Positions 48,078-55,074 of a stretch of DNA of 64,000 nucleotides are shown in pieces. The notes beneath the pieces are model-generated. The model was not told where the DNA came from, made no database searches, and saw nothing but the letters and a program-made list of their open reading frames with translations. The DNA is from Roseobacter sp. (GTDB lineage Bacteria > Pseudomonadota > Alphaproteobacteria > Rhodobacterales > Rhodobacteraceae). Position 1 is the first letter of the stretch. Each line of letters starts with the position of its first letter. The stretch is from contig JAGXHA010000055.1 in assembly GCA_024636475.1 (NCBI GenBank), positions 81,818 to 145,817 on the forward strand. The letters are read 5' to 3'. The position numbers and the translations under genes are program-made.

Positions 48078-48977
48078 ATGTATATAATTGCCGCCCTTTA
48101 TCATTTCAGCCGCTTCCACGACCCTGACAGCCTGCGTTCGCCGTTAAAATTGCTGTGCGAGGCGCAGCAGGTCAAAGGCACGCTGCTTGTCGCAGGCGAA
48201 GGCATCAATGGCACGATTGCCGGCCCTCGCGCAGGCATCGATACTGTGCTGGCCCATATTCGCGGTTTGCCAGGCTGCGGCAATCTTGAATGGAAAGAAA
48301 GCCGCGCTGTCACGCCGCCTTTCGGTAAAATGAAAGTCCGACTGAAGCGTGAAATAGTCACAATGGGCCAGCCTGACGTGGATCCTCGGGAACGTGTAGG
48401 CCAATATGTCGACGCGTCTGACTGGAACGATCTGATCACACGCGACGATGTGGCGGTGATAGATACCCGAAATGATTACGAAATATCGATCGGCACTTTT
48501 TCTGGTGCCATCGACCCCCAGACCAAAAGCTTTGGTGAGTTTCCCGCTTGGTGGGAAAAAAACAAGCATCGTTTCCATAATAAGAAGATCGCGATGTTTT
48601 GCACCGGTGGCATTCGGTGCGAGAAATCAACGAATTACCTTGCTGGGCAGGGCGTGGAAGACGTGTTTCACCTTAAAGGCGGGATACTAAAGTATCTTGA
48701 GGAAGTGCCACAGGAAAACAGCACGTGGCAGGGCGATTGCTTTGTCTTTGATAATCGCGTCAGTGTCGGTCATGGGCTTAAAGAAGGCCCACATATGCTG
48801 TGTCATGGATGTCGAAAGCCGATTTTGCCGGACGATACAAAGCGCGACGAATATGAGGCCGGGGTAAGCTGTCACCATTGCGTCGAAGTCACATCAGAAG
48901 CCGATAAAGCCCGGTTTCGCGAACGTCAGCACCAAATTCTGCTTGCGCGCACACGCGGTGAGGACCACCTGAGCTAG
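48078..48977 (+). CDS. trhO: tRNA U34 hydroxylase TrhO (rhodanese-domain, UPF0176)
   Basis: GTLLVAGEGINGTIAG, IDTRNDYE..IGTF, MFCTGGIRCEKS, YHL-type HLKGGILKYLE and CFVFDNRV motifs. Confidence 0.9.
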   Translation: MYIIAALYHFSRFHDPDSLRSPLKLLCEAQQVKGTLLVAGEGINGTIAGPRAGIDTVLAHIRGLPGCGNLEWKESRAVTPPFGKMKVRLKREIVTMGQPDVDPRERVGQYVDASDWNDLITRDDVAVIDTRNDYEISIGTFSGAIDPQTKSFGEFPAWWEKNKHRFHNKKIAMFCTGGIRCEKSTNYLAGQGVEDVFHLKGGILKYLEEVPQENSTWQGDCFVFDNRVSVGHGLKEGPHMLCHGCRKPILPDDTKRDEYEAGVSCHHCVEVTSEADKARFRERQHQILLARTRGEDHLS

Positions 48978-49940: not shown

Positions 49941-49997
49941 GCCTGATCAGCCTATCTGTTGCACCAACTTCGATTGGAACAGCAGAAAGGCTAACGC

Positions 49998-51350
49998 ATG
50001 ACCATTTCATCTTCGCTCAACGCAGGGGTTGCGGGTCTACAGGCCAATGCAATGCGTTTGGCCGGCATTTCAGACAACATCGCAAATTCGTCCACGTATG
50101 GATATAAACGGGTCGTCACAGACTTTAATTCAATGGTCTTGAAAGGAGAGACAAACAGCAGGTACACCGCCGGCGGTGTGCGGACTACTTCCCAGCGTCT
50201 AATCAGTGAAAGTGGGGCACTGATCAGCACCGCAAATTCAACAGATCTGGCTGTTCGCGGTCGTGGTTTCTTGCCTGTCACAACAAAAAGCGCCTTCGAG
50301 GCCGATCAAACAAACACGGAAATGATGCTTTCAACCACCGGATCTTTTCGGGTGGATGCGGAAGGGCTGCTAACATCCGACAGCGGTCTGCTGCTTTTAG
50401 GATGGCCCGCCAATCAAGACGGTACCATTCCCAACTTCCCAAGAGACACAAACGATGGCCTGCGTCCCGTTCAATTCGCGCTGAACCTGACCGGTGACCC
50501 GACCACCAAGATAGATATGAGCCTAAATCTCCCGGCAACGGCCACAGCTGCGGGTTCGGACGCGGATTCACAGGTTCTTTCGATCGAATATTTCGACAAT
50601 CTTGGCACCTCAAAAAGTATTGCCATGAAATTTACGCCCACTGTGCCATCAGCGGGTATGTCCAATGAATGGACCGTCATCCTCATGGACTCAGCACAAG
50701 ATGAAGCTGTCATCGGTGAATATGTGATCACTTTCGATGACAGCCGTGCCGCTGGTGGAACAATCGCATCCGTCACAACCGTGACCGGCGGTGCCTATGA
50801 TCCTGTAAGTGGGGAAATGATCGTCAATGTCGAAAGTGGACCGATCGAGTTCAACATCGGGGCGGTCAACAGTTCTTTCGGACTCTCTCAACTCTCGGAC
50901 AGCTTTGCACCGATTGCACTGAGCAAGGACGGCTCGCCAGTTGGCAATATGGCCGGGGTGGAAATCGATCCGAATGGCTACGTCAACGCAATTTACGACA
51001 ACGGCCTTCGCAAAACAATATATCAGATCCCATTGGTCGACCTGCCCAATGCCGAAGGCCTGATTTCCGTCGATTCCCAAACATATCAGATATCCCCGAA
51101 AAGCGGGGCTTACTTTCTTTGGGATTCTGGTGATGGACCCACGGGCGACATCAAAGGCTATGCGCGAGAAGAATCGACAACAGATGTTGCAACTGAATTG
51201 ACAACAATGATCCGGACACAACGTGCATATTCATCGAATGCAAAAGTCATTCAGACCGTCGAATTGTCTTTGGCAGAGTTGATATCTTTGCCGGTCGAAA
51301 TGGCGCTTTGGGTCGCAGAAAGATCCTTGTTGATAGAACGAAGTGTCTGA
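49998..51350 (+). CDS. flgE: Flagellar hook protein FlgE with a truncated, chimeric C-terminus
   Basis: SSLNAGVAGL...ISDNIANSSTYGYK and DLAVRGRGF motifs. The C-terminal MIRTQRAYSSNAKVIQTV is followed by 29 non-FlgE residues derived from antisense flagellin DNA. Confidence 0.92.
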   Translation: MTISSSLNAGVAGLQANAMRLAGISDNIANSSTYGYKRVVTDFNSMVLKGETNSRYTAGGVRTTSQRLISESGALISTANSTDLAVRGRGFLPVTTKSAFEADQTNTEMMLSTTGSFRVDAEGLLTSDSGLLLLGWPANQDGTIPNFPRDTNDGLRPVQFALNLTGDPTTKIDMSLNLPATATAAGSDADSQVLSIEYFDNLGTSKSIAMKFTPTVPSAGMSNEWTVILMDSAQDEAVIGEYVITFDDSRAAGGTIASVTTVTGGAYDPVSGEMIVNVESGPIEFNIGAVNSSFGLSQLSDSFAPIALSKDGSPVGNMAGVEIDPNGYVNAIYDNGLRKTIYQIPLVDLPNAEGLISVDSQTYQISPKSGAYFLWDSGDGPTGDIKGYAREESTTDVATELTTMIRTQRAYSSNAKVIQTVELSLAELISLPVEMALWVAERSLLIERSV

Positions 51351-51391
51351 AGCGCAACCATTGCGCTGTTGTTTGTGTTGATGCTCGACAT
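51251..51391 (-). pseudogene. fliC: Flagellin 5' stub (46 codons)
   Basis: Hand translation: MSSINTNNSAMVALQTLRSINKDLSATQSAISTGKDINSAKDNSTV*, a clear flagellin N-terminus, preceded by an AAAGGA SD. Confidence 0.93.
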
Positions 51392-51546
51392 GAACATGTT
51401 CCTTTAGTCATTGACGCTTTGCGTCCGTTTGCGACCCTACCCCGTTGGGCTGGGCCATAATGCCGTTCTGACCTGTGCACACATTCAATGTGTCTGATGG
51501 TGCGCCACCCGACCTCGGATGCAGCGCCACCATGCAAGTTTTCCGC

Positions 51547-51561
51547 TTAACAGCCTCCTAA
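51547..51561 (-). promoter_or_regulatory. Near-consensus CtrA box upstream of the flagellin leader
   Basis: Minus strand TTAG-GAGGCTG-TTAA, about 155 nt upstream of the flagellin ATG. Confidence 0.5.
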
Positions 51562-51598
51562 TTCGAGCATCTACAATATCGGGTATTTGATTCAAAAA

Positions 51599-51955
51599 TC
51601 AGGCACGTCTTTCAACTGAAGTTTCCGGGTTGATATCGATCACACATTTCGCACCATTCTTGTCATAAGTTTCGAGTGACGCCTGAACCCGCCGAAATGC
51701 AGCCATTCTTCGGGCGACTTTCCGGATTCCTTCAAGTGCATTGTTCAACAGCTCCTGGTTCCGCCTTACCTTGCTATCCAACAGTTCCAGCGCAGCAACG
51801 TCAGTCATTTCAGCGTTATTAAGCGCATCGATCAAACCCTCCTTACGACCGGCCATATTTGAAAGAACGTCCAAATCTCCCTTCAGTAATGCCGCACGCT
51901 CTGCCTCGAGAACATCATCGAGTGACCCTATCAGGGCTTCAATTTCATCACTCAT
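51599..51955 (-). CDS. flgN: Flagellar export chaperone, FlgN-like
   Basis: All-helical 118 aa protein (LDDVLEAERAALLKGDL, VRRNQELL, LETYDKNG) in the fla1 position between flgJ and flagellin. Confidence 0.7.
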   Translation of the reverse strand: MSDEIEALIGSLDDVLEAERAALLKGDLDVLSNMAGRKEGLIDALNNAEMTDVAALELLDSKVRRNQELLNNALEGIRKVARRMAAFRRVQASLETYDKNGAKCVIDINPETSVERRA

Positions 51956-52339: not shown

Positions 52340-54396
52340 ATGCAGTTGCCTCAAGCGTTTAAATTAACAAGCTCGGATGACGTTAAGATGAATGCGCATC
52401 CTTTCAAAGAAGGGCGCAGTAGCGCAATTCCAACACTGAAAGACGGGGCAAAGCACGTCCATTTTTCTGCCGTTTTTGCAGATCTGAAAGCCGTAGATTC
52501 CAAAGTTGAACTGACATCAAAGGGAAAGAGCACGGCAGAGCACACAGAAGGCGAAAACTTGGGTCAGGCACAAGAATCGGCACAGAACAGGTCGGTGGAA
52601 GAAGTTAATGTGGAATTTTCTGATCTGAGTGAAGCTGAGTTGCCGGAAAGGGTAACGACAAAAAGGGGCAAAACTGGACATATCGAATTTTCACAGGATG
52701 AGCGGCCGAGTGCCCCTGCTGGCATTGCTTCTGAAAAGACCAAACAACCCAGCCCTAGGCGCACTGAAACCTCGCTTGAAAGTATGATTTTACCCAGACT
52801 TCAGCCCGCGCTACTGTCGGAATTACACCAAGCCCCGGGGCACTACCTAGCCAGACGATTGATTTGGTCAAAAAAGTAGAACCGCAAGTCCTGCAGAAGG
52901 AAACAGAAAGTCAATTTTTACATATGGATAGAACGACTTCCGACCGATCCAATCGGGCGTCAACCATCTTGGGCGATGACATAAAAATTAGCGGCAAGAC
53001 CGTTATCAGAGCAGGTTACAGATCAAACGTTACCGTTGCTTCGGCATTGGTCTATCAAACCACAACGCCCGAACAGCAAATCGAACCGAAACACCTAGAA
53101 GAGCCGGCCAAACCAGCAACACAGCAGTCGCTATTAGGAGATGCGCCCTTATCCTCGGATGGTGCCGCACCAAGAACCCCTCAATCTCCTGCTTCAAACA
53201 GTCATGAAGCCGATTCCGGTCAGCATATTGCTGCGAATAAAGAGACCAGGGCAGCACCAAATTCTGTGAGGCAATCGCCACAAGAACATCCCGTTCCAGA
53301 ATCACCTGCCGTCGCTGATCACTCTTTGGCTTCGGCACGCAATTTTATGAATACATCACTCGAAAGCGCGTCTGTCGTGCGGCTCAAGCTTGGACATTCA
53401 AAATCCCAACTCCACACAGCCCTGCCCGAGCCAGAGCCAACACTTTCAAGAAGTGCACCCACATCCCAAAGTTCGGTGGCCCGTATAGATCCGGAAACTT
53501 CAGTCAAAAATTCTGCTGAACCCTCGTCAACACCTCACGAGACACCAAAGAACACTCGCAATCCTGACACCCAACGAAGGACATCTGGAAATACCGTCAA
53601 CCCGCAGGTGATTTCCGTACCTACCCAACCTCAAATGGATCAAGCATCAGCCTTTGTTTCAAAGCGAACAGCCGTGACGGCCCAACCGCGGGTTCTTCCG
53701 GGTGATCAAACAGATCAAGAACACATCGACACGCCCGAGAATCAAAAACACACGATAGAACTCGCGCCTACTTCGCAATCGAACCCCAATAAAGTGGCTC
53801 CAAAAATCGGAAAAGTGGTCGCTGTTTCCTCGGGGCAGGCAGGTATGGTGATGCAGCCAAATAAAGCGGCGGCAGGGGGCGCATTAGAAACCGCTTTACT
53901 CGAGTCCAAAGCCTTTGACGACATGACCCCCGGCCAACTATCCGATCAGCACCGCATTGCGAATATTGCCGTCACCCCGGTCATCACAAAAGCCGACTTA
54001 CCTTCACATATTCCAAGACAACTGGCTGAGGTACTAAATACCAGTAGCGGCAAATCGGTCGAAGTTGCCCTTCGCCCTGAGGAGCTTGGGCGCGTCAAGA
54101 TGTCGATCACACAGGCTGAAAACGGTGTGATAGTGAACATCTTGGCCGAACGCCCCGATACGCTGGACCTGTTGCGGCGACATATTGATCAACTCAATCA
54201 CGAATTAAAACTGCTTGGTTACCAAAGCCCTCAGTTTTCATTCCAAAACGAAGGCGAAAGCCCTTCGCCAGACCAGAACGACACGCCGCACGAACGGGCC
54301 TCGCTCAGCAATGACGCTGCCACTTCACCAGCGCTGCCGTCAACCGAGGAGCGCCGTAGTGTGCAGCCTCAGTCTGGCCTTGATATCCGGATATAA
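52340..54396 (+). pseudogene. fliK: Flagellar hook-length control protein FliK, split into two overlapping frames (52340-52879 and 52864-54396)
   Basis: Low-complexity S/T/P/Q-rich body and C-terminal Flg_hook domain (VEVALRPEELGRVKMSI...LLRRHIDQL...QFSF), upstream of flgD. The frame changes between about 52780 and 52876. Confidence 0.72.
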
Positions 54397-54408: not shown

Positions 54409-55074
54409 ATGACCCTGACAGCAACATCACTCACCACAGCGACAGTCCAGACAGCGCCGGAAGTAAGCAAATCCAAAAGCGTGATCTCGTCTGATTTTGA
54501 AACTTTCTTGAAGATGTTAACAACACAGGCGCGCTATCAGGATCCGCTTGAGCCCATCGATTCATCTCAGTACTCCGCCCAACTGGCGCAGTTTTCGATG
54601 GTAGAACAACAAGTTCTTTCGAATGACCTGCTTAAAGCCCTTTCAACCCAGCTTGGCGGCAGCAGCATCGGCCAGGTCGCAGGGTGGATCGGTATGGAGG
54701 CCCGGTCGACCGCTCCAGTTCAGTTTGAAGGGGCACCGATTACAATTGCGCCAGTCCTTGCGCCATCCGCTGAAAAAGCGGAGCTTGTGATTTATGATGC
54801 TCAGGGCAAAGAAGTTCAGCGCAGCGCGATCTCTGTTTCAGAAGAACCCATCCAATGGGCAGGCGTTTCGCAAAATGGCAGTCCCTTCGCCAATGGCACC
54901 TATAGCTTCGCCGTAGAAAGCTATCGAGGCGGTGAAGTCTTCGCAACCAATCCAGCAGAAAGCTATTCCCGCATCATCGAAGCTAGAATTGAAGGCGGGG
55001 CGACACGGTTGATCCTTGCCAGCGGCACAAAAGTTGCAACAAGCGATATCACAGCCTTGCGGACAGTAGATTAA
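54409..55074 (+). CDS. flgD: Flagellar hook capping protein FlgD
   Basis: DFETFLKMLTTQARYQDPLEPIDSSQYSAQLAQFSMVEQ. Confidence 0.95.
   Translation: MTLTATSLTTATVQTAPEVSKSKSVISSDFETFLKMLTTQARYQDPLEPIDSSQYSAQLAQFSMVEQQVLSNDLLKALSTQLGGSSIGQVAGWIGMEARSTAPVQFEGAPITIAPVLAPSAEKAELVIYDAQGKEVQRSAISVSEEPIQWAGVSQNGSPFANGTYSFAVESYRGGEVFATNPAESYSRIIEARIEGGATRLILASGTKVATSDITALRTVD

Follow-up and report, generated by a model that had tools for sequence, protein, structure and literature searches.

The same base-pair deletion junction in the fla1 flagellar cluster recurs across Roseobacteraceae

In a window of 64,000 nucleotides (the whole stretch of DNA analysed, from contig JAGXHA010000055.1 of assembly GCA_024636475.1, deposited as Roseobacter sp.), the flagellar gene cluster fla1 is present as a true chromosomal deletion allele, hereafter D, in which codon 421 of the hook-protein gene flgE is joined to antisense codon 46 of the flagellin gene fliC. 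The organism is a Sulfitobacter-like bacterium, and its assembly (3.41 Mb, 99.4% complete, a draft in 118 contigs) is probably a metagenome bin. Taken alone, the deletion in this genome is ordinary gene loss. What is noteworthy is that a base-pair-identical deletion of 25-26 kb recurs across Roseobacteraceae: the same junction arose independently many times in the family, in at least 12 genera and with at least 13 changes of state, and this recurrence points to an undescribed deletion hot spot. An earlier note on this DNA took a single-genome view, which hid the recurrence of the same deletion across the family. We favour, as a probable explanation, a repeated and independent deletion of fla1 at a cryptic quasi-repeat through RecA-independent illegitimate recombination.

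At the protein level, 29 of the 120 best 90%-identity clusters in a search with the chimeric FlgE' protein end in ...NAKVIQTV followed by an antisense-flagellin tail of the pattern (E/A/D)(L/P)S(L/F)A...; Sulfitobacter sp. CW3, S. porphyrae, Salipiger and Alloyangia pacifica are among the carriers. Mapping of the fusion on a FlgE tree requires 17 changes of state, at least 13 of them forced by well-supported branches, and two fused proteins (P0012 and P0013) have a 421-residue FlgE core identical to that of the intact P0018. Every carrier locus with DNA (16/16, from more than 12 genera) has the arrangement motB-flgE'(1-421)::antisense fliC(46-1)-flgN-flgJ-fliK-flgD, and in all 16 the junction reads ...CAG ACN GTN up to the join and G(A/C)N TTG TC... 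beyond it. In a sample of one genome per genus the junction is carried by 12 of 401 genomes. FlhA was found nowhere in 10 of these 12, including the single-contig genomes G220, G355 and G383, and the remaining two have only an FlhA of a different type elsewhere in the genome; isolate genomes with the same junction also lack FlhA. One Roseobacter-type chimeric FlgE (P0026) is labelled 'Photobacterium sp. TY 1-4' at source, a record that is probably mislabelled or contaminated.

The extent of the loss was read against G017, the closest genome with an intact locus (same genus, 80% FlgE identity), whose cluster runs UPF0176-motB-flgE-flgK-flgL-flgI-orf433-fliP-fliN-fliH-fliF-fliL-orf143-orf206-motA-orf638-flhA-fliR-flhB-orf140-fliL2-flgH and continues flgA-flgG-flgF-fliQ-fliE-flgC-flgB-fliI-DUF1217-flbT-flaF-fliC-flgN-flgJ-fliK-flgD-ugd. 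The flanks and remnants in the window are collinear with the intact clusters of G017 and of a further relative, G001, and the FlgE tree puts the window within the Sulfitobacter fla1 clade. A single deletion accounts for the window, the alignment skipping 25,610 bp of G017 and 26,097 bp of G001. It removed 30 whole genes (flgK to flaF), 84% of fliC and the last 12 flgE codons, and with them the export gate, the MS, C, P and L rings, the rod, the hook junction, MotA, the ATPase, FlbT, FlaF and most of flagellin. The earlier note had given the fla1 order between flgE and flagellin and had proposed one large deletion leaving motB-flgE' and fliC'-flgN-flgJ-fliK-flgD; its order matches intact G017 exactly, and the gap is indeed a single one. 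As it also stated, no structural flagellar gene lies between the two fragments, whose neighbours are motB upstream and flgN, flgJ, fliK and flgD downstream.

At the junction itself, the sequence, the list of open reading frames (ORFs) and the Pfam matches all agree with the original description of a plus-strand flgE that runs into DNA antisense to flagellin. The whole flgE ORF occupies 49998-51350 (+), tracks its relatives as far as ...AKVIQTV (codon 421) and ends ...RAYSSNAKVIQTV then ELSLAELISLPVEMALWVAERSLLIERSV; FlgE of G017 ends ...VIQTVDEMLQETTNIKR. Pfam profiles Flg_bb_rod, FlgE_D2 and Flg_bbr_C match the ORF, the last of them broken off at position 40/46. The loss of C-terminal FlgE residues had been seen correctly, with their number put at about 11, which becomes 12 against G017. 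On the opposite strand, the stub ORF (51397-51251, 48 aa) encodes MFMSSINTNNSAMVALQTLRSINKDLSATQSAISTGKDINSAKDNS-TV and a stop codon, ending at 51251. It matches positions 1-40 of Pfam Flagellin_N at E=6e-8, over the curated cut-off, and retains each position conserved among intact flagellins; by comparison with the flagellin of G017, which reads ...TAKDNSAIWAI, exactly the 46 codons first proposed are kept. A 260-nt alignment to G017, covering the stub and the first ~60 nt of the leader region, has a mean column identity of 87%. In blastn against G017 the left high-scoring segment stops at 51262 and the right one begins at 51261. The junction is clean, with no mobile element nearby and no filler bases. 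Beyond it, the out-of-context tail of flgE' ranges from 16 to 118 aa in other carriers, and because of this variation it is not conserved as a protein.

The missing genes have not moved elsewhere in the genome. When the 30 proteins of the skipped block were compared with the whole assembly by tblastn, a search that the earlier note had proposed, no matches were found except paralogues (FliI matched the F1-ATPase and similar paralogues, and FlgG matched flgE itself), and all flanking control proteins were recovered. No tblastn match in the genome was obtained for motA, the deleted partner of motB, and the functional fla1 markers flhA, fliF, flgH and flgI are likewise not present; a profile search of the genome for FHIPEP/FlhA was also negative. 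The stub is the only Flagellin_N match in the genome, no rod genes were found there, and there is one FlgE-family gene only. The genome has no second flagellar system. An intact orphan fliG (352 aa) lies outside the window, at C71:14884-15942, flanked by housekeeping genes. Because the deletion took ~25.6 kb including 30 flagellar genes and most of flagellin, the organism is unable to build a flagellum, in agreement, as far as genome searches go, with the expectation of a non-flagellated strain unless a second system exists. The event is a deletion, not an inversion or translocation; phase variation of the Hin type by inversion was considered and rejected, since the genes are absent and the geometry of the junction fits a deletion.

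Within its 149-kb contig the junction is ~16 kb away from the nearer end, and it is crossed by independently assembled public contigs (X1, X3, X6, X7, X8, X10, X12, X14 and X15), which rules out the misassembly that the earlier note had raised as a possibility. X1, from a cold-spring metagenome, has 0 differences from the window, and the others come from salt-lake and lake metagenomes. An undeleted allele of the same species was found in two lake samples (X9 and X13). The X13 contig is identical to the window at 139/139 positions as far as 51262, the X9 contig has 4 differences over 50900-51262, and both go on CGAGATGCTCCAGGAAACGACAAATATCAA, the intact flgE tail DEMLQETTNI. Since an intact allele with an identical left flank persists in these two samples, the loss is recent; the remnants, intact save for a frameshift in fliK, also make the event young, as had been suspected from the conserved look of the stub. 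Within the species, D is found on several flank haplotypes, marked by clusters of synonymous single-nucleotide polymorphisms (SNPs) at 50954-50996, 51137-51149 and 51335, and all of them are accounted for by a single deletion and subsequent short imports through recombination. Other variants were seen in the same data. A 197-nt X3 contig (window 51180-51370) represents a 90%-identical variant that also crosses the junction, its listed differences all at third codon positions. Runs X1 (window 51395-51613) and X8 (50960-51832) contain a commoner relative, 87-90% identical and matching L088, with an intact flgE tail and fliC. Relative to the window, the four salt-lake runs aligned there (X3-X6) each carry an additional T between motB and flgE, at position 49973.

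The two break sites have a quasi-repeat, CCAGAYNGYNGA, in common. On the plus strand the flgE site reads ...AT CCAGAC N GT N, then GA YGAR after the break, and the fliC site reads ...GC CCAGAY N GC N, then GA RTTGTC. Across 17 genera whose clusters are intact, the flgE site can be aligned to the antisense fliC site without a gap, and CCAGA, G and G(A) are invariant or nearly so; identity between the sites is ~50% over 45 nt, the best shared block is 5-8 nt, and the quasi-repeat in the relatives is imperfect (8-10/12 positions identical). Its conservation follows from coding constraint on both sides, as FlgE I-Q-T-V-D (ATC CAG ACN GTN GAY) and as the antisense of flagellin S46-A-V/I-W-A (GCC CAG AYN GCN GA). 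Wobble positions at both sites are conserved no further than coding demands, and there is no dyad symmetry. The bases at the crossover that can be assigned to either parent are (C)GA in the window and G, GA or CG in other carriers. We hypothesise that the cryptic direct quasi-repeat would set the register for RecA-independent illegitimate recombination, by template switch or end joining, that the recombination would resolve at the last shared 1-3 bases, and that the deletion may then spread where motility is dispensable. A repeat-guided template switch or end joining is our best mechanistic guess. The window junction and those of other carriers show a few either-parent bases and no insert, as in microhomology-mediated deletions (slippage, template switching, microhomology-mediated end joining), which they also resemble in the short imperfect direct repeat and in the lack of a mobile element or long repeat. 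The break sites do not have the highly identical direct repeats, tens of bases long or more, that non-allelic homologous recombination uses. The resemblance to microhomology-mediated deletions has its limits, however, since the deletion spans 25-26 kb, far above typical slippage, the repeat is imperfect (8-10/12) and not the best of the region, the crossover avoids the longest identical block, and the outcome is the same despite differing wobble bases.

Several observations weigh against repeated deletion guided by the quasi-repeat. Independent microhomology events are usually expected to differ in their breakpoints, and here the junction is identical in 16 loci. In the 33 kb that follow the flgE site downstream, 15-185 further positions are matches to it of the same quality as the fliC site, so that the idea of the fliC site as the best match within the cluster was rejected on match counts, and ~10^4 equally good 12-mer quasi-repeat pairs would be expected in 30 kb (an estimate from base frequencies, not a computed count). 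Because the similarity is not unique in the cluster, microhomology alone cannot account for the recurrence of the junction. Furthermore, the crossover is restricted to 1-3 bases (G, GA or CGA) and never falls within the longest identical block, CCAGACNG, while at the mismatch just before the junction the flgE-type base (the T of GTN) is retained in 16/16 DNA junctions and 28-29/29 protein tails; single-strand annealing would predict a 50:50 outcome, unlike this asymmetry. Sequence similarity alone explains neither the choice of this pair of sites nor the constant flgE version of the repeat. Neither site forms a stable hairpin, and folding of the DNA at the two sites and at the junction gave z-scores of 0.1-1.4, with no unusual structure. 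Carriers are found in both orientations relative to dnaA, so a simple model of leading-strand slippage is unfit. Finally, were many of the alleles old, two disruptions in the ~16 x 5.5 kb of remnants would be a very small number. With regard to position, several complete genomes (G383, G220, G355 and G418; also L023) have the fla1 locus at a distance of 10-170 kb from dnaA, and in Alloyangia pacifica it lies beside rpsT at the end of the chromosome record, which places the cluster near the replication origin in these genomes.

Some of these same features would suit an enzyme-catalysed, directional excision, in which flgE and fliC would be cut at set positions, and the flanks joined, by a nuclease or recombinase of the host or by an RNA-guided system. 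The junction is precise to the base pair in 16 loci from more than 12 genera despite varying synonymous bases around it, the outcome is strictly asymmetric with a crossover window of 1-3 nt, the similarity of the two sites is not unique in the cluster, and intact and deleted alleles coexist within species. In addition, a contig of the same-genus assembly G012 (L098, end of C4, 62871) stops exactly at the junction (...CCAGACCGTGGA), the pattern that a sample containing both the intact and the deleted allele would give. We nevertheless consider such an excision unlikely. A Pfam scan of the 30 deleted genes of G017 yielded flagellar families or nothing, and no recombinase or nuclease domain, so an element-encoded recombinase is lacking; in place of an identical core, the sites share 1-3 nt at most, with the mismatch just to the left always of the flgE type, without dyad symmetry and without wobble conservation beyond coding. 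The predicted reciprocal circle junction was not found: a degenerate pattern gave only two matches in JGI metagenome contigs, both in an unrelated gene, although a transient circle would not assemble. Moreover, two genes are destroyed and none is restored. In the Bacillus skin element (sigK) and the Anabaena nifD, fdxN and hupL elements, too, tens of kb are removed precisely and reproducibly, with ends inside coding sequences. Elements of the skin and nifD type have their own recombinase and identical cores at both ends, and a gene is made whole again, in a terminal cell type, when they are excised; the fla1 deletion has no recombinase and no core, destroys two genes and is heritable. It is likewise doubtful that a dedicated directional mechanism recognises the flgE 3' end and the fliC 5' end and constitutes a conserved, one-way 'swim-to-stick' switch in Roseobacteraceae. 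If the deletion were enzymatic, it would represent a heritable developmental switch of a new kind, and if the directional switch were real, the intact remnants would mark how often and how recently it fires.

Repeated deletion also has to be weighed against a scenario in which D originated once or a few times long ago and then spread laterally through homologous recombination, its flanks being homogenised afterwards to each recipient lineage; a 4-kb fragment with the junction could travel in gene-transfer agents. Such a short fragment would convert an intact locus in one step while the reverse needs more than 25 kb, the several within-species haplotypes of clustered synonymous SNPs resemble recombination imports, and P0003 and P0006 have an identical tail yet diverged in mid-FlgE. 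The flanks argue in the other direction, agreeing with each lineage's own intact relatives to the last base. Sulfitobacter sp. CW3 (D) and G017 (intact) have 4/48 and 1/60 mismatches beside the junction; L025 (D) and L026 (intact), from two samples with adjacent JGI accession numbers and probably of the same study, are 97.7% identical to the last base before it. The window, compared with its closest intact relative L088, shows a flat ~85% identity up to the junction, and foreign flanks were rejected on this profile, which leaves no imported tract. Codon 46, right at the junction, is lineage-specific, Ser in some lineages and Ala in others, and the stubs are as diverse as intact flagellin N-termini. 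Carriers are 30-40% apart in FlgE protein and ~25-30% in DNA, and homologous recombination could plausibly spread D within species and genera, not between genera 25-30% apart in DNA. From the native flanks, the lineage-specific codon 46, the diverse stubs and a divergence too great for intergenus recombination, it follows that the deletion occurred many times, and we regard lateral spread from a few ancient events as improbable. In the sequences examined, the trend already appears to be that junction-proximal D alleles do not cluster together. A shared derived base near the junction (ATT versus ATC, Ile419) was tried as a marker of D and rejected as inconsistent among D alleles.

The remnants left behind are surprisingly well kept. 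Every conserved flagellin position is retained in 13/13 stubs examined, fliK has an open frame in 11/12 scorable D loci, and fliG is open in 6/6 scar carriers checked. Only in the window strain is fliK split into two overlapping frames: its C-terminal frame opens 556 nt after flgJ, compared with ~110 nt in 13 other loci, and in a salt-lake sister strain the 45 nt at 52806-52850 are replaced by TTAC (net 41 nt), which restores a single frame. In L102 (G383:C1:1351500-1366500, a single contig; 7294-8561), flgE' is frameshifted near residue 300, either because this is an older copy of the same scar or through a sequencing error. The broken fliK and the frameshifted flgE' show that the remnants can decay. 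On the simplest reading, the majority of D alleles are young, which would imply a high rate of formation or of turnover. Alternatively, old deletions would look young if the collapsed locus (motB, flgE', stub, flgN, flgJ, fliK and flgD, plus orphan fliG) were kept by selection for a non-flagellar function. The intactness of the remnants in nearly all carriers, including the fast-evolving fliK and the orphan fliG, would fit, as would the finding that two D strains of the species differ nearly only at third positions (16/17 in flgE; all in flgN, flgJ and flgD). We find this very improbable, because no export gate, MS ring or rod is left to secrete or assemble these proteins, because the two frameshifts exist, and because carriers differ in where the flgE' tail and the stub stop. 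The clustering of the third-position SNPs is what imports from intact relatives would produce, and a single origin with such imports accounts for the haplotypes; purifying selection after the deletion was dropped as a reading of these SNPs once the clustering was recognised and the intact allele appeared on the same haplotype. Chemotaxis (MCP) genes were uninformative as a clock, being also absent from the intact relative G001. An artefact or rearrangement (misassembly, or a cluster inverted or translocated) can be set aside almost entirely: the assembly is a 118-contig draft and binning can miss plasmids, but spanning contigs from many runs cross a junction well inside its contig, none of the 30 genes was recovered, isolate and single-contig carriers also lack FlhA, and an inversion would yield a sense-orientation flgE::fliC(47-), which is not observed.

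Sporadic independent losses of the fla1 cluster have been reported in Rhodobacterales (PMC11974857), and Ruegeria populations have been described with partial fla1 clusters (bioRxiv 10.1101/2020.12.31.424895); in these studies presence or absence was scored by FlhA, FliF, FlgH and FlgI, or lineage-specific segments with neighbouring pseudogenes were described. The losses reported here are alike in cluster and family, in being repeated and phylogenetically scattered, and in placing non-motile strains beside motile relatives. They differ in that one base-pair junction recurs in at least 12 genera, and text searches of the published fla1-loss studies returned no report of a common deletion junction.

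Scar carriers such as Sulfitobacter sp. CW3, S. porphyrae, Salipiger and Alloyangia pacifica are still annotated with a 'flagellar hook protein FlgE', which in these genomes without export apparatus is a truncated chimera. Since carriers retain flgE, motB, flgD or fliG without the export apparatus, gene-presence calls from these genes overestimate motility. Roseobacters are models for the 'swim-or-stick' lifestyle and for interactions between bacteria and algae, and motility is a key trait in both. A 25-kb deletion that recurs across genera at one base pair provides a simple metagenome marker for non-motile ecotypes, and the scar offers a natural system for studying the choice of breakpoints in bacterial illegitimate recombination. 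The features of the collapsed locus are collected in Table 1.

Table 1. Features of the collapsed fla1 locus and its neighbours, in window coordinates; identities are to the G017 counterparts.
Feature	Coordinates	Strand	Evidence and remarks
UPF0176/rhodanese gene	48078..48977	+	Pfam UPF0176_N and Rhodanese; 86% aa identity; conserved left neighbour of fla1
motB remnant, intact, 276 aa	49066..49896	+	Pfam MotB_plug; 79% identity to MotB over 276 aa
flgE', hook-protein codons 1-421	49998..51262	+	80% identity to FlgE over residues 1-429; last 12 codons (DEMLQETTNIKR) gone
Deletion junction, (C)GA	51260..51262	.	Three-way alignments with flgE and fliC of G017; sole bases assignable to either parent
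Out-of-context tail of the flgE' ORF, 29 aa	51263..51350	+	Antisense of the flagellin stub; no FlgE homology
fliC', flagellin codons 1-46 including the start codon	51260..51397	-	Pfam Flagellin_N 1-40; 92% identity to flagellin residues 1-48
fliC leader and promoter region, retained intact	51398..51598	-	High identity throughout the aligned part
flgN remnant, intact, 118 aa	51599..51955	-	Pfam FlgN E=1.4e-6, 29.2 bits, just below the curated cut-off of 30.5 bits; 70% full-length identity
flgJ-like rod-binding gene remnant, intact, 91 aa	51948..52223	-	Pfam Rod-binding; 64% identity
fliK, frameshifted in this strain	52340..54396	+	N-terminal ORF 52340-52879, C-terminal ORF 52864-54396; sole decayed remnant
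flgD remnant, intact, 221 aa	54409..55074	+	Pfam FlgD and FlgD_ig; 67% identity
UDP-glucose 6-dehydrogenase-like gene (ugd)	55071..56390	-	439-aa ORF; position and length as in G017; conserved right neighbour of fla1

For the right-hand neighbour, UDPG_MGDP_dh domains are recorded in the equivalent ugd gene of L020/L021. A second type of fla1 deletion, different from D and older, was seen in two syntenic genera (L105 in G123 and L106 in G320), where only motB-flgE-flgK-flgL-flgI is left and flgK has been frameshifted independently, at a different place in each. In the metagenome-assembled genome MFD01721.bin.2.14 (L019, 11345-14910), an intact cluster has split flgK and flgI frames, which are more likely assembly errors than decay.

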